In this document: positions 1-50,252 of the stretch, piece after piece
Layout: every line of letters starts with the position of its first letter
Position numbering within the stretch: the first letter of the stretch is position 1
Source: a virus
Lineage: Duplodnaviria > Caudoviricetes
Virus record (IMG/VR): IMGVR_UViG_3300021400_001310
Span: 1-64,000 of that record
Strand: one strand, 5' to 3'
DNA length: 64,000 nucleotides
The notes under the pieces: model-generated
Databases searched by the model: none
What the model was told of the DNA's origin: nothing
Seen by the model: only the letters and a program-made list of their open reading frames with translations
Program-made: the position numbers and the translations under genes

Positions 1-69
1 CTGAGCGGTAGCCGTCGTCTGAGCGGTAGCCGTCGTCTGAGCGGTAGCCGTCGTCTGAGCGGTAGCCGT
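1..69 (+). repeat. 18-bp tandem repeat CTGAGCGGTAGCCGTCGT, 3 full copies plus 1 partial (may extend past the window edge)
   Basis: Read directly; units start at 1, 19, 37, 55; no spacers. Confidence 0.95.
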
Positions 70-82
70 TATATCCATAGAC

Positions 83-119
83 AAAAAAAATAGCACGGTC
101 GCCGTGCTACCGTGCTATT
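83..119 (-). terminator. Intrinsic terminator of the leftward gene
   Basis: AATAGCACGGT/ACCGTGCTATT stem followed on the minus strand by T8, just after the stop at 130. Confidence 0.75.
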
Positions 120-129
120 ATGTTATTCA

Positions 130-1014
130 TTATTTGAGATGTTTAATCAGTTCGTTGAAAGTATCGCCGTCGTTGTCTTTCAAGTATTTGAGAATTTTGG
201 TCGATATATTCAACCTATGACGTGATACCGTCGCCGTTGTCACGCTCAATCTTTCAGCGGTCGCCGTCGTTGTATATCCTTTCATAAACAACGATAACAA
301 ACGCCTTTCGGTCGCCGTAAATGGTATATCTTTCAGCTTATAAAAGAACGCTTTTAAACTTTCGCCGTTGCATATACCGCCGTCGTCGTCAATTTCAATA
401 TAATCGATTAAACTGTTTGGAATGGTACGATAGAAAGAAAGGCGGTCGCCGTCGTCGTCGATTATATAGTCGTCGATTGATATGGTATTATTATCAAATC
501 CAAAATCGTTTTTGTTTGCGCTTATCTCAGCTCTTACGGCTCTATATATGCGCTGAATAGGTGACGCGTCAACCGTCGTCAATAGGTCGCTTTCGTCGAC
601 TTTCGCCGAAAGGCTAAAAGTCTTTTTTTTGTGCTCCGTCGTTGTATAGACTTTTTCAGTCCAACCGTTTGCAAGGCGGTCGCCGTCATTGCAAACAGCG
701 TTACACTCAATCAGTATTTGCATATAAGCGGTATCAATAAGAGCGGTATAATCTGAAAGGCGGTCGCCGTCGTCAATAGATTTATTCCTTTCATTGTATA
801 ACCGTCTGATTTTTTCATTGCAACCGCTATTGTTTGATGTGCCTTTTTTACCTGCAGGGTCGTAAACAGTACGGAGAACGGAATTTACAACGATTTTAGA
901 GAGGCTTTCGGCACTCTCCAAAAAAAGAACGTTGTTTCGGTAGTTTGCGCCGTCGCTTATAACGACGCTTTCAAGGTTGTCTAATACACCTTTCATTGTT
1001 TGGTTTGCTTTCAT
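130..1014 (-). CDS. Protein with C-terminal LuxR/sigma-region-4-type HTH (putative transcription regulator or sigma-like factor)
   Basis: C-terminal FTATERRLLSLFMKGYTTTATAERLSVTTATVSRHRLNI; SD GAAAGGA favours ATG at 1014 over TTG at 1023. Confidence 0.65.
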   Translation of the reverse strand: MKANQTMKGVLDNLESVVISDGANYRNNVLFLESAESLSKIVVNSVLRTVYDPAGKKGTSNNSGCNEKIRRLYNERNKSIDDGDRLSDYTALIDTAYMQILIECNAVCNDGDRLANGWTEKVYTTTEHKKKTFSLSAKVDESDLLTTVDASPIQRIYRAVRAEISANKNDFGFDNNTISIDDYIIDDDGDRLSFYRTIPNSLIDYIEIDDDGGICNGESLKAFFYKLKDIPFTATERRLLSLFMKGYTTTATAERLSVTTATVSRHRLNISTKILKYLKDNDGDTFNELIKHLK

Positions 1015-1068
1015 TGCTTTCAAATCCTTTCAAATAAATATATAGTACGGCGGTCGCCGTCGTGAAAT

Positions 1069-1098
1069 ATAATATCATACTATGCTAGAAAAAGTCAA
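1069..1098 (-). promoter_or_regulatory. sigmaA-type promoter for the leftward gene
   Basis: TTGACT, 18-nt spacer ending in TGa, then TATTAT on the minus strand. Confidence 0.6.
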
Positions 1099-1600: not shown

Positions 1601-2389
1601 ATGTCAGATAATAATGTAATTAATATTAACACACTTAAATCCAATAGAAGAGCTGTAGAGGGTCTCATATCTCCTGCTTCAGAAAAAGTAAAAGAAGAAG
1701 TAGTTGTAAGTCATGCTGCTGAACCTATCAAAGATCCTGATGATATATTAAGAATCTCTGAGTATTTGATCCATAACAGTAGATATAGAGATAATATGCT
1801 CTTTATCTTAGGTATTAACTTTGGATTAAGAATAAGTGATTTACGTTTATTAAGATTCTCTAATCTTATAAATGATAACTTTACGTTTAAAGATAATTTT
1901 CCTGTATTTGAGATAAAGACCAGAAATACAAGAAAAAAGAAAAAAAACAGATATATTACAATTAACAATTCTGTTATGGATGCAATTACTCTGTATTTAC
2001 AGAATACTCCAAATGTTAAACTGAATGATTATCTGTTCCGTAGCCAATCCAATAATGGAAGTAGTAAGAATGAACCTATTACGCTTCAGGCTGTAGATCA
2101 AATGCTTAAAGGTATAGCTAAAGATTTAAAGCTTAATATAAAGATGAGTACGCATACACTTCGTAAAACTTTCTGTTATCATCAAATGTTAATGTCTAAT
2201 AATGATACGAGAAAGTTATATCTACTTCAGCAAATGTTAAATCATTCATCTTTAGCTCAAACTTTGGATTATATAGGTATTACTTCAGAAGAAATAGCTG
2301 AAGCTTATCTTAATCTTAATCTTGGATTAAGAAAAGACAATAGCTTAGTTGATAGTAAAATTATTGAATTGTCTGATTATGCTTCTTAA
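1601..2389 (+). CDS. Tyrosine recombinase (short, catalytic-domain type)
   Basis: GLRISD, HTLRK, LNHSS, LDYIG catalytic motifs. Confidence 0.9.
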   Translation: MSDNNVININTLKSNRRAVEGLISPASEKVKEEVVVSHAAEPIKDPDDILRISEYLIHNSRYRDNMLFILGINFGLRISDLRLLRFSNLINDNFTFKDNFPVFEIKTRNTRKKKKNRYITINNSVMDAITLYLQNTPNVKLNDYLFRSQSNNGSSKNEPITLQAVDQMLKGIAKDLKLNIKMSTHTLRKTFCYHQMLMSNNDTRKLYLLQQMLNHSSLAQTLDYIGITSEEIAEAYLNLNLGLRKDNSLVDSKIIELSDYAS

Positions 2390-2906: not shown

Positions 2907-5639
2907 CTGTCTAAACAGTTAGTATGTCAGAAATACATATTTAAAATCAACAGCAGCAGATTAAGGAAATCAAAATGGAATCTCACTCTGCCGTTACCTG
3001 AAGCAAGGCGTAATGACGAGATCATAGCTCTCGCCGACAGCCAGATACTCAGATGGATAGACGAGATAAACAATATAGAAGATGCGGACGTTAGAGCTAA
3101 ACAATTAAAACAAGAAATCAAGTATATTAAAAAGCTGCCAAACTCCGCAGAGAATCGTAAGCGAATAAAGAGGCTATATGAGGATTTGGATAATATTCAA
3201 TTCAAGCCTGATTATATGTGTCTTATTATTGACAAAGAAAAAGATTATTACCGAGCCTGTAAAGGCTTTTCAATAAACGGAATTAAATATAAGCGACTGC
3301 TTGGAACTGTAAACGGCGTTAAGAATAGTACAATAGTCTTTGTCAGTGAATCAATAAAAGACGAGCTTGTCCGAAGAATAGAAAATGGTCGCAATCCCGA
3401 CGTGCCGCTTGTCACAGCAAAATTGGAAGCTTACAAGGCTCTGACCTGCAGTGCATCAACTCCGGTATCGTTTCCTTCCGGGGTTTTAGTGGTTAAAGAT
3501 TACGAGACTGAATTTAATTCAGATATAATTTATCTTTCAGATGAAAACTCCGAGGAGCCTGTTATGGAATTTAGGAAAGATGAACATATAACGATTGATG
3601 CCTGTGACGGTTTCGGTTTAATATCTCCAAGTCTTGCAGAAAGATGGAGCAAAGAACTTGGATTAGATTATACCGTAAGCGGCTGCAACACGAGGTTTGC
3701 ATTTGAAAAAGGTATGGTGTTTACTTTTGACTTCGTTGATTTCGCCGAAAAGAAAGCCGAAACATATATAGTAAAAGATGCTTGGGGAAACGATGTAGAT
3801 ATCCGTGATGTCGAACTTATACTGACAACTTCAATGGTTAAGTTATGGGATAGCTATTGTAGCTGCGAGGATTATATAAATATATCCAAAGCAAATCATT
3901 ATACATTTGGAGTGGCAAAAACCTGTCCTAAAGAATTAGAAAATGAGAGAAGTCTCAATTATCAGTTTATTCAATCTTATGATTTACAGGATAGTGATAT
4001 CGAGGATTTAATCTCTCCGACTATTCGGGAATTTAAAGATGTTTTAAGTGGCGACTGGCGTAAGGCTGTATTATTCTTAAAGGGTTCATCTTTAAATAAG
4101 CAGAATGTAAAGAAGTTAAGCAATGACTATATTAAGGCAATAATGATTGAACCTGCATTATTAGACGATCCTTTTATTCAAGATAATATATATCAGCTAA
4201 TAAAAAATAAGATTAACGAAGCGAAGGTGGGGGTAATTAAAGTTCACGGAAATTATTCCATCGTTTCTGGGGATCCTTATGCTTTATGTCAGAATATATT
4301 TGGATTAAAGGTGACAGGGTTATTAAAAGCCGGAGAGATATATAACCAATATTGGGCTGACGCAGGGGCTGACAAGCTCGCCTGCTTTCGTGCACCGATG
4401 ACTTGCCATAACAATATAAGGTTCGTTCAATCTGTTTTAAACGATAATACAAAATACTGGTATCAATATATGAATACCTGCACGATTTTCAATGTATGGG
4501 ATACTGCCACCGCAGCACTCAACGGCTGCGATTATGACGGTGATCTGGTTATGTTAACCGATAATGCAGTATTAGTAAATAAACTAACTCCCCTGCCAGC
4601 TCTTATGTGTGCGCAGCGCAGAGCGGAGAAAAGAATATCAACCGAAGATGATTTTATAAAATCCAATATTGAAAGCTTTGGTAATGATATAGGACAGACT
4701 ACAAATTGGATAACAAGTATGTACGAAGTCAGAGCAAAGTTTTCACAGGACAGCGAAGAATATAAGATTTTAACATATAGGATACAATGCGGGCAGTTGT
4801 ATCAACAAAATGCCATAGATAAAGCTAAAGGAATTGTTTGTAATCCTATGCCAAAAGAATGGCATGATAGGCATTCAGTAAATTGTATTCATGACGAATC
4901 AAAGAAAAAGTTATATCGCTCAATAGTAGCTGACAAGAAACCATATTTTATGAGGTATATCTACCCTGCCTTAATGAAACAATATAATTCATTTATAAGA
5001 GACACATATAGAAAATCACTTAGTGAGTTTAAGAAAACTGTTTCAGAGATGATGATTATGCCGTATGATCAATTATCCGAAAGGCAAAAAGATTTTCTTA
5101 GATATTATTCTTATAAGATGCCTGTCGGAATTGAAGATTGTGTAATGAATAAGATATGTAAGAGATTTGAAAATGAATTTGACGGGTACGTTGTTAAAAA
5201 TAAAGAAATAACAGATTTTGATTATACGATATTAAAAACAGAGGCTGCATATAATCAATATCAGTTTAGAGCAATTAAAACACTTTATGAAAAATATAAC
5301 AACCAATTAAAAAGTTATACTGTTCTCTCAAAATACGAAAAGACAGACAAAGCAACTAATTCTACCAACATACATCTCATCGACGAAGAATTTAAAAAAG
5401 AATGTAGCAAGATATGTCCAAATGAAGAAGTATTATGTAATATCTTATTGGATTTGTGTTATACAAAAGTCGGAACAAAGAGATTTGTTTGGAATATCTG
5501 TGGTGAAACAATTATAAATAATTTATTAGTTAAAAATAACAATCGTATATTTTTCCCTGCTTTAGATACAAACGGTGATATCTATTATGGCGGAAATAAA
5601 TATTCAATTCAAGAAGGTGAGGTTGATATATGTCAATAG
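2907..5639 (+). CDS. YonO-like single-subunit RNA polymerase (RdRP-related), 910 aa from a CTG start
   Basis: Catalytic LNGCDYDGD, plus DACDGFGLIS and FRAP motifs; frame is open 93 codons upstream of 3186 to CTG 2907, preceded by an in-frame TAA and SD AAGGGGGT. Confidence 0.85.
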   Translation: MSKQLVCQKYIFKINSSRLRKSKWNLTLPLPEARRNDEIIALADSQILRWIDEINNIEDADVRAKQLKQEIKYIKKLPNSAENRKRIKRLYEDLDNIQFKPDYMCLIIDKEKDYYRACKGFSINGIKYKRLLGTVNGVKNSTIVFVSESIKDELVRRIENGRNPDVPLVTAKLEAYKALTCSASTPVSFPSGVLVVKDYETEFNSDIIYLSDENSEEPVMEFRKDEHITIDACDGFGLISPSLAERWSKELGLDYTVSGCNTRFAFEKGMVFTFDFVDFAEKKAETYIVKDAWGNDVDIRDVELILTTSMVKLWDSYCSCEDYINISKANHYTFGVAKTCPKELENERSLNYQFIQSYDLQDSDIEDLISPTIREFKDVLSGDWRKAVLFLKGSSLNKQNVKKLSNDYIKAIMIEPALLDDPFIQDNIYQLIKNKINEAKVGVIKVHGNYSIVSGDPYALCQNIFGLKVTGLLKAGEIYNQYWADAGADKLACFRAPMTCHNNIRFVQSVLNDNTKYWYQYMNTCTIFNVWDTATAALNGCDYDGDLVMLTDNAVLVNKLTPLPALMCAQRRAEKRISTEDDFIKSNIESFGNDIGQTTNWITSMYEVRAKFSQDSEEYKILTYRIQCGQLYQQNAIDKAKGIVCNPMPKEWHDRHSVNCIHDESKKKLYRSIVADKKPYFMRYIYPALMKQYNSFIRDTYRKSLSEFKKTVSEMMIMPYDQLSERQKDFLRYYSYKMPVGIEDCVMNKICKRFENEFDGYVVKNKEITDFDYTILKTEAAYNQYQFRAIKTLYEKYNNQLKSYTVLSKYEKTDKATNSTNIHLIDEEFKKECSKICPNEEVLCNILLDLCYTKVGTKRFVWNICGETIINNLLVKNNNRIFFPALDTNGDIYYGGNKYSIQEGEVDICQ

Positions 5640-8134: not shown

Positions 8135-9160
8135 ATGGGACGAAAAACGCAAATGAATAATATTACTAATCCTGAGTTGCTTTCGCAGGTCAATCCTGAG
8201 AATATTCAACTTTTAAACGATTTTGTTGATTATCTTCGTTCTATTCAAAGAAGCGAAGAAACCATAAAAGGATATATAAATGATATACAAATTGCTTGGG
8301 TTTGGAATCTATTACAGAATGATAACAGATTCTATTGTGATTGGACTAAAAGACAAATTATTAAATATCAGAACTGGTTAATCAATGACAATCAAAATAG
8401 TCCTGCAAGAATAAAGCGGCTCAAGTCTGCTCTGTCAAGTTTAGGAAATTTTATCGAATCTGTATTGGACGATGAGTTTCCAAATTTTCGCAATATAATA
8501 AATAAAATTGAAAGTCCTGTTAATCAACCGGTAAGAAATAAAACCGTTTTATCAGACGAACAGATAGTGTCGCTTTTAAACTATCTTACCGAAAAAGGAA
8601 AATATGATAAAGCCTGCGTTCTTGCTTTAGCTTTATATTCAGGAAGGCGTAAGTCTGAACTTTTAAGATTTAAAGTCGACGACTTCACAGATGAACATCT
8701 GGTTTGCAACGGTGCATTATATAAATCTAATCCAATAAAGACAAAAGGACGTGGCGTTAACGGAAAACAGTTAGAATGTTTCTGCTTAGCCAAAAAGTTT
8801 AAACCATATTTAGATTTATGGTTAGCTTATAGGGAAAAAGAAGGTATAAGGAGTGACTGGTTGTTCCCTAAAAAATCAAATTCAAATGAAACATTATGTG
8901 TATCAACTTTAAATAGTTGGGCAAAAACATTCAGTGAAATCTTAGGAATTGATTTTTACTGGCACGCAGTTAGGCATTTAACTGTTACAAATTTTAAAAG
9001 AGCAGGAATACCAGATACGGTAATACAAAAATATATCGGATGGGAAGACATATCCATGGTGCCAGTCTATGTTGATTTAAAAGCAGACGAACAGCTTGGT
9101 ATGTATTTTAATGAAGATGGCATAATTACTCCATCAACCACATCTTTATCCGATTTGTAA
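8135..9160 (+). CDS. XerC/D-like tyrosine recombinase
   Basis: Core-binding N-domain (RSEETIKGY), GRRKSE, HAVRH, IGW, PVY. Confidence 0.9.
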   Translation: MGRKTQMNNITNPELLSQVNPENIQLLNDFVDYLRSIQRSEETIKGYINDIQIAWVWNLLQNDNRFYCDWTKRQIIKYQNWLINDNQNSPARIKRLKSALSSLGNFIESVLDDEFPNFRNIINKIESPVNQPVRNKTVLSDEQIVSLLNYLTEKGKYDKACVLALALYSGRRKSELLRFKVDDFTDEHLVCNGALYKSNPIKTKGRGVNGKQLECFCLAKKFKPYLDLWLAYREKEGIRSDWLFPKKSNSNETLCVSTLNSWAKTFSEILGIDFYWHAVRHLTVTNFKRAGIPDTVIQKYIGWEDISMVPVYVDLKADEQLGMYFNEDGIITPSTTSLSDL

Positions 9161-49115: not shown

Positions 49116-50252
49116 TTACTTAATCTCAATCATTTCGTCTATAGCAGATGCTACCTTTTTTTGTCTTTCAGCATTTGTATGGGCGTAGAAATTGAATGTT
49201 GTAGTCGGACTGCTGTGCCCTAACCAGTCAGCAATACTTACTATAGGAACATTTTCTGCACACAAATTACTTGCCGTACTGTGACGTAAGTCATGGAATC
49301 TTACAACAGGGAGACTACTGTTAACCAAAATTTTATGGAACTGCTTCGTTAAATAATTTGGAAGAATTACTCGCCCGTCAGCCCATGTGCAAACATAATC
49401 TGATTTAATATAATGATCTCCCATTATCTTTGAACGTTCCTCTTGTTGCGCCTTCTGTTCCTTAAGAATCTTATAAGCGCTTTTGGTTAATGGCAATGTT
49501 CTATAACTACTTTCATTCTTTGGTAAGTCGGTATAACTACCTCCAGTATTTTGCTGCAATGTTTCTGAAATAGTTATAGTTCTTTTTTTAAAATCTATGC
49601 TACCCCATTTTAATCCCAAAACCTCACTTCGTCTAAAGCCATAGATAGAACATAACTGAACTGGTAATTCAATTACGCTGCCTTTCATAACGATTAATAG
49701 TTGCTCAAGTTGTTTGGGTGTAAGAAAATTAGCCTTGAATTTATCTGGTTTTGGTGGTCTGGCGGCAAATGCTGGATTAGAACTAATCAGCCCAGAGTGA
49801 ACTGCATCTGACAACGCCTTGCTTATGTTTTGATGATGATGCTTGACAGAGGATTTAGATAAACCACTTTTTACCATTGAATCATAATATGCTTCCAAAT
49901 TAATTGGACATAACTGCTGGAGCTTGGTTTTGTTATCCCTAAAGTACGGAATTATATGTTTCTCCATATTGCCTTTATATCCACGATAAGTATTCGGTCT
50001 TACCTTATCTTTAATCTCGGTCAACCAGAGTTCAAAATAATCAGCCACAAAAATATCTATCCCATTATCATCGGTGTTTTGGGAGTATTTTATGATCTGT
50101 TGTTCTAAAAACTTCTCTGCTTTCTTTTTGTTTCCTCTAACCGGCAAGCCACTATTAATCCATTTCTGTTTACGATTTCCTCTAACATCCTGTAAGTTTA
50201 ACACGGCATAAAACACGCCGCTTTTAGCTTGTACGCTTCCTGTAATAGCCAA
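49116..50252 (-). CDS. int: Tyrosine integrase with N-terminal arm-binding domain
   Basis: GFRRSE, PKN, FHDLRH, LGH, NFY; adjacent to attP. Confidence 0.93.
   Translation of the reverse strand: MAITGSVQAKSGVFYAVLNLQDVRGNRKQKWINSGLPVRGNKKKAEKFLEQQIIKYSQNTDDNGIDIFVADYFELWLTEIKDKVRPNTYRGYKGNMEKHIIPYFRDNKTKLQQLCPINLEAYYDSMVKSGLSKSSVKHHHQNISKALSDAVHSGLISSNPAFAARPPKPDKFKANFLTPKQLEQLLIVMKGSVIELPVQLCSIYGFRRSEVLGLKWGSIDFKKRTITISETLQQNTGGSYTDLPKNESSYRTLPLTKSAYKILKEQKAQQEERSKIMGDHYIKSDYVCTWADGRVILPNYLTKQFHKILVNSSLPVVRFHDLRHSTASNLCAENVPIVSIADWLGHSSPTTTFNFYAHTNAERQKKVASAIDEMIEIK

Follow-up and report, generated by a model that had tools for sequence, protein, structure and literature searches.

We analysed a 64,000-nucleotide stretch of viral DNA (hereafter the window; positions 1 to 64,000 of IMG/VR record IMGVR_UViG_3300021400_001310, Caudoviricetes), which makes up the beginning of one contig of 104,556 bp and 34.8% G+C. 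At its beginning, a short motif, CGGTMGCCGT (M, A or C), is clustered on one strand in and around a gene for a helix-turn-helix (HTH) protein (130–1023, minus strand). The cluster is a solid observation. Judged from sequence comparison, we see roughly even chances that the motif is the cognate DNA site of this HTH protein and that the gene and its sites constitute a local switch and specificity module. The main reason for assigning the sites to the HTH protein is that its recognition helix and the variable part of the site change together between related phages.

Distribution and strand polarity of the motif

Exact copies of CGGTMGCCGT number 11 in the window, all on the plus strand; 0.04 were expected, and none of 100 shuffled sequences reached 11. 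Four copies have the A form (6, 24, 42, and 60) and seven have the C form (96, 258, 309, 443, 677, 761, and 1051). The original prediction had placed exact copies at these positions, and none was found elsewhere in the window. It had also noticed no full copy in the other 63 kb, which is correct for the window, whereas the whole contig adds three copies at its opposite end (104452, 104498, and 104510, plus strand), inside a 46-bp tandem unit. A strand-specific count over the full contig had been proposed as a way to refute the idea; it gave 14 copies on the plus strand and none on the minus strand. The 14 copies are local, not genome-wide, being confined to 1.2 kb, and the other 103 kb contains none.

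When partial copies are included, the word occurs approximately 20 times, with 10–15 bases in each occurrence, on one strand only. The partial copies claimed at 164, 228/230, 362, 377/378, and 948 are present as TCGCCGT or CGCCGT. The extended consensus, GCGGTCGCCGTCGT, matched 15 sites on the plus strand and one chance site on the minus strand of the 104.5 kb when up to three mismatches were allowed. The 8-mers CGGTCGCC and GGTCGCCG have 10 occurrences in the 1.9-kb region around the contig break and are missing from both strands of the remaining 102 kb. When IMG/VR was scanned for exact copies of the 15-mer, only single chance copies in unrelated contigs turned up.

Motif copies in and around the HTH gene

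The HTH gene encodes 297 amino acids, or 294 from the probable start codon, ATG at 1014. It is a stand-alone transcription unit, as it has its own σA-type promoter and its own terminator, and the word recurs in one orientation in each part of it, namely the promoter, the body, the terminator, and the 3′ flank. The strong predicted promoter (1069–1098, minus strand) comprises TTGACT, 18 nt, and TATTAT, with TG at the extended −10 position. In the leader, approximately 37 nt ahead of the start codon, is a full 15-mer, GGCGGTCGCCGTCGT (1049–1063, plus strand), which occupies about +1 to +15 of the predicted transcript and is able to form a hairpin of 5–6 pairs. The intrinsic terminator (89–111, minus strand) has a 10-pair stem with the motif (96–105) at its apex, followed by eight T residues. 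The presence of the motif in the leader (1051–1060) and in the terminator, as first noted, was thereby confirmed. Past the terminator, a tandem array (1–69, plus strand) consists of 3.8 units of 18 bp at 100% identity, carries four CGGTAGCCGT copies (6, 24, 42, and 60), and is cut by the contig start.

All copies in the coding part are likewise on the plus strand. The full copy at 258–267 is read as T-A-T-A-E, and that at 309–318, the start of the HTH domain, is read as F-T-A-T-E-R. The copies at 443–452 and 761–770 are read as D-G-D-R-L, as is the motif at 677–686, which ends a longer copy (662–686) composed of CAACCGTTTGC, four bases, and the motif; this longer copy resembles the 3′ half of the 46-bp array unit. 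Partial copies were found at 164–170 (TCGCCGT), 227–240 (three mismatches to the 14-mer consensus), 362–386 (two copies, TCGCCGT at 362 and CGCCGTCGT at 378), and 948–953 (CGCCGT).

It had been proposed from the two-frame reading that selection acts on the DNA, not on the protein. The two frames are present as described (443, 677, and 761 as D-G-D-R-L; 258 and 309 as T-A-T in another frame, within the HTH). Conservation of DGDRL among homologues, which had been named as an observation against the proposal, was looked for in a 20-member alignment, and DGDRL was conserved at none of its three positions. Furthermore, the nearly invariant K-A-I-A of the family's HTH is replaced by the motif-encoded T-A-T-A in the protein of this phage. 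The lack of DGDRL conservation and this replacement indicate that selection or copying acts on the DNA, and the proposal is supported.

A degenerate, AT-shifted copy of the core element of the family (TTGAC..GCGGTA..) can be seen at 1197–1219 on the minus strand, approximately 100 bp upstream of the HTH-gene promoter; this weak assignment was made by eye against the family consensus. Between the promoter and this copy, positions 1100–1195 are extremely AT-rich with overlapping palindromes. This segment could be a DNA-unwinding element or just promoter-region DNA.

A lineage-specific element brackets the HTH gene in relatives

A profile built from family members detected the gene in 44 open reading frames (ORFs) of related loci, which are labelled L0xx where they need to be told apart. 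In at least 15 related lineages, one lineage-specific element brackets the HTH gene, and the word differs between lineages. A single copy precedes the HTH-gene promoter, and the terminator is closely followed by one copy or by several in tandem. The upstream copy of the relatives is a single box and core, 30–50 bp 5′ of a near-consensus σA promoter (TTGACA, 17 nt, TATAAT). Many relatives have tandem arrays just 3′ of the HTH gene, with units of 39–92 bp and 60–74% G+C. These arrays stay with the HTH gene even where the gene for a 262-amino-acid recombinase, described below, is 30 kb away.

In the array units, the core CCCTTTGCGGT, which continues with (G)TAGG, is preceded by a lineage-specific 5′ box; short repeats, rich in GC and poor in T, come after it. 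Two boxes 20–21 bp apart, equivalent to two helical turns, were recognized by eye in the units of several relatives. A hairpin with a conserved TTGCGGT loop and varying stems of the CCCT/AGGG type is visible in several array units and was not used as support. Comparison of the element by eye with sigma-promoter geometry, σ54 −24/−12 spacing, DnaA boxes, and cre boxes gave no consistent fit.

The bracket was evaluated with a shared-word test, in which the 400 bp upstream of the ORF were compared with the 600 bp downstream at the 33 loci for which both flanks were available. An exact word of 11–24 nt in the same orientation was common to both flanks in 23 of them. For 18 loci, the median length of the shared word was about 19 in the same orientation and about 10 in the opposite orientation; a stretch farther downstream gave at most 11, and mismatched loci gave 8–16. 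The shared word of this phage, ACGGCGACCGC, is the motif on the sense strand. Its 11 exact letters are borderline by the shared-word control alone and are backed by 15 co-oriented copies. In a 117-kb relative, a 16-mer element is found at five bracket places and nowhere else.

Overprinting of the coding sequence with array words, in the same orientation and in several frames, extends to L046, L033, L069, L042, and L061, where it is less marked than in this phage. The invasion of ORFs was scored with an array-word test. The ratios were 10:1 in this phage, 34:1 in L046, 11:4 in L033, and 9:2 in L069. In three loci (L046:378–3287, L049:172–2214, and L042:317–2116, all minus strand), the homologous gene has grown to 600–970 codons; the expansion consists of low-complexity repeats rich in Ala, Gln, and Glu, whose DNA matches array words.

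Such a distribution might arise from a repeat with no function of its own, namely a minisatellite that grows by slippage and is spread by short-patch gene conversion, its polarity being due to descent. Even close relatives have arrays that are unlike in unit and length, and the arrays break assemblies; the invasion of the ORF is patchy across lineages; and in some relatives the repeated in-ORF words are just low-complexity peptide repeats in one frame (QAEAQA, AAEAAA, and PAPAPA). However, the bracket is kept across proteins that are only 17–40% identical, the 15-mer is exact at three dispersed sites in two contexts, and the box co-varies with the recognition helix as described in the next section. 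We therefore consider an absence of function quite improbable. Neutral spread from the arrays may explain how the copies arose.

Co-variation of the recognition helix and the 5′ box

Lineages differ strongly in the recognition helix of the HTH, and differences in the 5′ box of the element accompany those in the helix. L082 and L084/85 have 84–88% identity in the N-terminal part and differ in the helix (HKQSVKNV versus KEESVRSV) and in the box (ACCTTACG versus CCTAGTG). L033 and L041, with 69% N-terminal identity, also differ in both helix (QAVQN versus NNVGR) and box (GGGGTTGCCCC versus GGGTGACCCC). In L087/L083, L030, and L026, whose N-terminal identity is 29–32%, the helix is of the SHQ type and the box is GGTTGAC throughout. 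L034 and L033 are 47% identical in the N-terminal part and share the helix QAVQN and the box GGGGGTTGCCCC. The box is thus changed where the helix is changed and unchanged where the helix is unchanged in all four contrasts. The neighbouring 257-amino-acid gene is 48% identical where the HTH protein is approximately 25% identical, which fits the HTH protein as the specificity determinant.

The original prediction had offered Chi-like sites, sites at which a phage protein (perhaps the HTH protein) is loaded, or single-stranded hairpin signals. The bracket and the tracking of the helix by the box favour the second of these options.

Protein family and fold

An exhaustive HMMER search (E ≤ 1e-3) returned 25 representatives, and the full-length 20-member alignment is at about 25% identity. 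By its profile matches, the family is one of fast-evolving σ70/LuxR-like HTH proteins; the sources consulted for its members give these proteins no name. Pfam GerE was matched at residues 235–277 (3.6e-6), which form the C-terminal GerE/sigma region-4 HTH. The best match of the profile in the PDB was σH region 4 (3.9e-7), followed by the HTH domains of NarL, SdiA, and RhlR. The nearest ESM Atlas cluster is a phage cluster in which Sigma70_r4 is annotated in 100% and Sigma70_ECF in 94% of the members, and a stretch like that of extracytoplasmic function (ECF) sigma factors, DLVQ..A..AIL, is visible in the N-terminal part of the alignment.

The AlphaFold model (mean predicted local distance difference test score, 72) combines four helices in the N-terminal part with a beta insert and a C-terminal domain of four helices. 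VIA-align matched it to sigma region 4 and LuxR domains with Z scores of 7–9.5 and root-mean-square deviations (rmsd) of 0.9–3 Å. Full-length matches (σ28, WhiG, SigB, and σ32) and N-terminal matches (T4 gp55, pro-σK, and SigI6) had Z scores of 6–9 with high rmsd, and these values fall within the range common for helical models. Foldseek gave weak sigma-factor matches only, none below E 0.001. The likeness to sigma factors of the full length and of the N-terminal part, which would correspond to the core-binding region 2, is suggestive but not decisive.

In this protein, the helix T-V-x-x-H-x-x-N-I-x-x-K-I fits the LuxR pattern. Neither Pfam nor structure comparison gave a receiver or autoinducer-binding match in the N-terminal part, which is helical and sigma-like, and the sites are asymmetric and co-oriented, not palindromic boxes of the LuxR type. 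Pfam and PHROGs returned HTH families only and no Rep family. No close homologue was found with peptide patterns in IMG/VR, by tblastn against isolated phages, or by genome-contig scans, and a word-indexed search of 5.8 billion proteins returned only the HTH protein itself; the exhaustive HMMER search alone recovered the family.

These results raise the alternative that the HTH protein is a true sigma factor. The upstream element would then be its autoregulated promoter, and the array elements would be tandem promoters directed into a RAGATH-16 leader and an early operon. A sigma-like fold, suggested at both ends of the protein, and the ECF-like stretch agree with this, and the variable box resembles a −35 element (TTGACC, TTGACT, TTGTCT, or GTGACC) and tracks the region-4-like helix. 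The elements are in the sense orientation at both places, and in 11 of 12 relatives, as in this phage, no good σA promoter was recognized in the interval from the arrays to the next gene. The geometry argues against it: the box and the conserved centre are 4–8 bp apart, too close for the −35/−10 contacts of a holoenzyme, and nothing is conserved 16–18 bp downstream of the box. In this phage, the distance from the box to 'TGTAAG' is about 5 bp. Moreover, because the element occurs nowhere else in the 117-kb genome mentioned above, the 'regulon' would amount to two sites. A true sigma factor is, in our judgement, decidedly unlikely.

The arrays span the contig break

The far end of the contig carries an array of 46-bp units (104449–104556) with three full and two partial motif copies, which runs into the contig end. 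By synteny, the 18-bp array at 1–69 continues into this 46-bp-unit array. The reference for this order is an integrated relative on a 622-kb bacterial scaffold, in which the HTH gene, the terminator, a tandem array, approximately 0.9 kb of non-coding DNA, and a 257-amino-acid gene follow each other. The same order is kept across the two ends of our contig, where the counterpart of the 257-amino-acid gene (48% identical) is located at 103192–103965. Because the contig starts and ends inside arrays, the motif copies form a single block that the contig break divides, and the real arrays probably exceed their assembled length.

Many related contigs also stop inside an array, and in the integrated relative a run of N lies inside the array. 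Since this scaffold gap occurs inside the same array of an integrated prophage, it is the repeats that break the assemblies, which accounts for the contigs and scaffolds of these phages that stop at this locus. The original prediction had regarded this place as the first-ejected genome end. That view is not upheld, given that the array breaks assemblies even in an integrated prophage, and nothing points to a physical terminus.

The same evidence bears on the explanation that the motif copies are Chi-like sites by which a genome end escapes AddAB/RexAB, or that they mark a physical terminus as terminase (pac) recognition repeats. The strict polarity, the presence of AGCGG inside the 18-bp unit, and the many related contigs that end in arrays are in line with it. 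AGCGG is indeed located at the seven positions first reported (4, 22, 40, 58, 256, 727, and 742), yet its genome-wide counts, 61 on the plus strand and 51 on the minus strand, are unskewed. A Chi word specified by the host would be expected to be common to related phages, yet the word differs in nearly every lineage and its copies are confined to 1.2 kb. The contig ends reflect assembly failure, as the scaffold gap in the prophage indicates, the large terminase gene is approximately 10 kb away, and there is no terminal repeat between the two contig ends. Both the Chi-like reading put forward earlier and the pac variant are very improbable.

Structured RNAs follow the arrays

Matches to known structured RNAs were obtained after the arrays of relatives. 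RAGATH-16 follows the arrays directly at L015:3557–3629, L017:3873–3944, and L082:3441–3513, two of the three matches being above the Rfam gathering score and one below it. RAGATH-4 was matched after the arrays at L015:3234–3366. An HDV-like ribozyme of the F. prausnitzii type was matched at L087:9633–9709 on the plus strand with 34.8 bits (E 0.007), short of the gathering score of 44; in this integrated prophage, the match falls in the non-coding DNA that separates the array from the 257-amino-acid gene. In this phage, a diverged RAGATH-16-like block at approximately 104290–104372 (minus strand; L081:4290–4372) aligns with the RAGATH-16 of relatives; it gave no Rfam match at E ≤ 1. The position directly after the arrays provides a first functional context for the RAGATH-16, RAGATH-4, and HDV-like RNAs.

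In another explanation, the word acts in RNA or in single-stranded nucleic acid. ACGG-CGA-CCGU mini-hairpins in the mRNA, at its 5′ end and in its terminator, and perhaps in array transcripts, would stabilise the RNA, signal its processing, or act as a protein sponge, as a functional part of the ribozyme/RAGATH-rich leader. Polarity would follow naturally, and the variable C/A base would be central in the 3-nt loop. Additional pairing makes real hairpins of two copies, one at the apex of the terminator and one at the leader's 5′ end; T is scarce in the sense strands of the array units of most lineages; and the arrays are followed by known structured RNAs. Against this, the arrays lie beyond the terminator of the gene, the upstream copy of relatives precedes the promoter and is outside that transcript, and the in-ORF copies have no extended pairing. 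Rfam detected nothing in the arrays or in the HTH gene, and co-variation with a DNA-binding helix would be unexpected. An RNA-level role consequently seems improbable.

A putative switch and specificity module

Binding of the motif by the HTH protein, the reading that we prefer, would operate as follows. Monomers would bind head to tail on the asymmetric sites. At the promoter copy, the protein would limit its own synthesis, in this phage directly at the transcription start. At the downstream arrays, it would control the entry of transcription into the RAGATH-16-like leader and the leftward early/replication operon. About 12 further in-coding sites of this phage would link both flanks in a single nucleoprotein tract of 1.2 kb, which could act by cooperative spreading, looping, or as a roadblock. 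Fast joint change of helix and site would give related phages different specificities, in a manner resembling heteroimmunity.

Several observations weigh against this reading. Strict strand polarity is not required of a simple operator. The assignment of the sites to the HTH protein is moderately supported; the co-variation of helix and box rests on four comparisons and on exact-word matching, and the conserved centre CCCTTTGCGGT does not track the helix, which implies a second reader such as another protein domain, a host factor, or RNA polymerase. The motif of this phage fits the GC-rich 'tail' of the array units better than their conserved centre. The upstream copy is located at about −70 to −90 from the start site in relatives and at +1 to +15 here, and the regulatory logic may differ between lineages. 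The in-ORF copies, with spacings of 51, 134, 234, 84, and 290 bp, are without helical phasing. Heavy invasion of the ORF is seen in some lineages only and is absent from others, for which reason we take overprinting as an elaboration, not as the core of the module.

We also considered a bolder form of the proposal, which we hold only tentatively and at clearly less than even chances. A sigma-derived DNA-binding protein that is no longer a general sigma factor would form head-to-tail polymers along a polar tract of its sites; this tract flanks the gene on both sides and, in some lineages, also overlies the coding part. The protein would thereby gate transcription into a ribozyme/RAGATH-rich leader and an early operon. 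Co-evolution of helix and site would be fast enough to serve as an immunity or incompatibility code among gut Firmicutes phages. If so, this would be an undescribed phage control module.

Genome context

The genes of this phage run rightward from 1.6 to 48.6 kb and leftward from the contig end to 49 kb, as does the ORF at 130–1023. We identified genes for the large terminase, the portal, a 3184-amino-acid virion protein, PolB, DnaB helicase, primase, Erf, NrdD, and an HU-like protein. In tblastn searches with the portal, the relatives were large siphoviruses of Bacillus, Brevibacillus, Lactococcus, Enterococcus, Clostridioides, and Enterocloster, including Sundance, PJN02/Tsamsa-like, and 949-like phages. 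A crAss-like phage was considered from the two-block layout, the 3184-amino-acid protein, and PolB; it was rejected, as the portal matched only large Firmicutes siphoviruses and the promoters are of the σA type. Relatives were found as proviruses and on bacterial scaffolds of 0.4–0.6 Mb, which indicates that the group is temperate. We thus classify this phage as a large, temperate siphovirus of Firmicutes. Neither an XRE-type regulator nor another sigma region 4 was detected in its genome.

The GC skew switches at both points where gene direction switches, and the motif cluster is located where the two gene blocks diverge, at the minimum of the cumulative GC skew. This position bears on the alternative that the cluster is an iteron-type replication origin or copy-control locus, with the HTH protein as initiator and the AT-rich segment at 1100–1195 as the unwinding element. 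Co-oriented direct repeats upstream of, inside, and downstream of the gene would be natural for such a locus, as would the co-variation of protein and site, known from Rep–iteron pairs, and the two-turn spacing of the boxes seen by eye in the array units of relatives. Besides, no initiator was recognized beside the primase and DnaB genes. On the other hand, the protein has only sigma/LuxR HTH family matches and none to a Rep family, no DnaD/DnaB_2 domain was found in the genome, the replication genes are about 43 kb distant, and the module is retained in integrated prophages. The GC-skew switch is not independent evidence for an origin because it coincides with the transcription switch. The location of the arrays directly ahead of a conserved structured-RNA leader points to transcription. 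An iteron origin would account for the anatomy and the co-variation just as well as the preferred reading, but is on balance an unlikely explanation.

Other features of the genome were recorded. A gene at 3186–5639 (plus strand) encodes an 817-amino-acid single-chain two-barrel RNA polymerase of the YonO kind (Pfam RdRP, 7.7e-16), with approximately 69% DNA similarity to Clostridium phage c-st over parts; in an integrated relative, a 914-amino-acid counterpart adjoins the HTH gene. Three tyrosine recombinases are encoded. The first (1601–2389, plus strand) is short, with 262 amino acids, and has no N-terminal domain; the second (8135–9160, plus strand) has 341 amino acids and a SAM-like N-terminal domain; the third (49116–50252, minus strand) is full-length, with 378 amino acids, is encoded where the gene blocks converge, and is likely the prophage integrase. 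Right after the 262-amino-acid recombinase gene, a 24-nt inverted repeat (2396–2419 and 2605–2628, 83% complementary) flanks a 185-bp segment. The arrangement is that of a putative invertible promoter switch, located before the genes for the RNA polymerase and the structural proteins. A weak CRISPR-DR24 match in Rfam (E 0.029) lies inside the segment.

Near the other contig end, a tRNA match at 100941–101066 (minus strand; L081:941–1066; 47.5 bits) extends over 126 nt for a model of 71 positions and therefore probably contains an insertion or intron. A few genes downstream of the arrays, positions 101263–101715 (minus strand; L081:1263–1715) encode 150 amino acids with an N-terminal MazE/AbrB-type antitoxin domain (Pfam, 1.8e-10).

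Comparison with known systems

The original prediction put the locus forward as its best candidate for an undescribed system. It is not wholly undescribed in kind, since sites in and around the gene of their own binder are a known arrangement; no description of this HTH gene or its repeat bracket was found in the searchable literature. Three features appear to be new: a sigma-derived protein family that is unnamed in the sources consulted and was not found in isolated phages by tblastn; a fixed bracket of one promoter-proximal copy and a 3′ tandem array beside RAGATH RNAs; and, in this phage, the density of sites overprinted on a gene in two frames. The locus offers a testable protein–site pair for abundant uncultured phages of gut and rumen Firmicutes that have no recognisable CI/Cro switch. 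Natural variants of helix and site (L082-type versus L084-type, and L033 versus L041) are available for reading the recognition code of sigma region 4. The gene is also a clear case of a protein-coding sequence, conserved HTH included, that has been reshaped to carry DNA sites.

In Firmicutes phages, the neighbourhoods of twister and hammerhead ribozymes and of RAGATH RNAs (Rfam RF03047 and RF03153) resemble this locus, as the same RNA classes follow the arrays; those families describe RNAs, however, and not an HTH gene with a bracket. ECF and group-3 sigma factors with an autoregulated promoter are similar in the sigma-like fold, in the −35-like box that tracks the region-4 helix, and in the copy upstream of their own gene. 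They differ in that the geometry found here does not fit the −35/−10 spacing and the 117-kb relative has no regulon elsewhere.

Centromere arrays such as sopC of the F plasmid, and other ParB-bound arrays, are located just downstream of the gene for the binding protein. The tandem array of approximately 40–90-bp units directly 3′ of a gene for a DNA-binding protein, with a site in each unit, is comparable. Unlike in these systems, neither a ParA (CbiA) nor a ParB domain (ParB_N) was matched in this genome, where the ParM and TubZ nucleoside triphosphatase families were not searched, and the module persists in integrated prophages.

Iteron replicons place direct repeats around or within the gene of the initiator, as in P1 repA (incC/incA), mini-F repE (ori2/incC), the lambda origin inside gene O, and RepA_N replicons with oriV inside rep. 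The locus is like these in that direct repeats bracket or sit in the gene of the presumed binder, the coding sequence accommodates them, and specificity differs by lineage. It is unlike them in having no Rep-family domain, in the distance to the replication genes, and in the structured-RNA leader that the arrays adjoin.

The anatomy of a repressor–operator module is found here, with sites at the flanking promoters and with protein and site co-varying between related phages. The repressor of Bacillus phage phi105 binds asymmetric 14-bp operators in direct orientation, some of them inside early coding sequence, and lambda cI is flanked by OL and OR. As in both phages, a regulator gene is located at a divergent control region, and protein and site change together between relatives. 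As in phi105, the sites are non-palindromic, in one orientation, and present both at a promoter and inside coding DNA. Unlike the repressors of phi105 and lambda, the protein described here is σ70/LuxR-like and not XRE/CI-like, and repressor function is only proposed for it. The number and placement of the sites also differ from those of phi105 and lambda: there are about 20 sites here, besides arrays of 18–92-bp units, and sites are located inside the protein's own gene, in two frames, and in its terminator.

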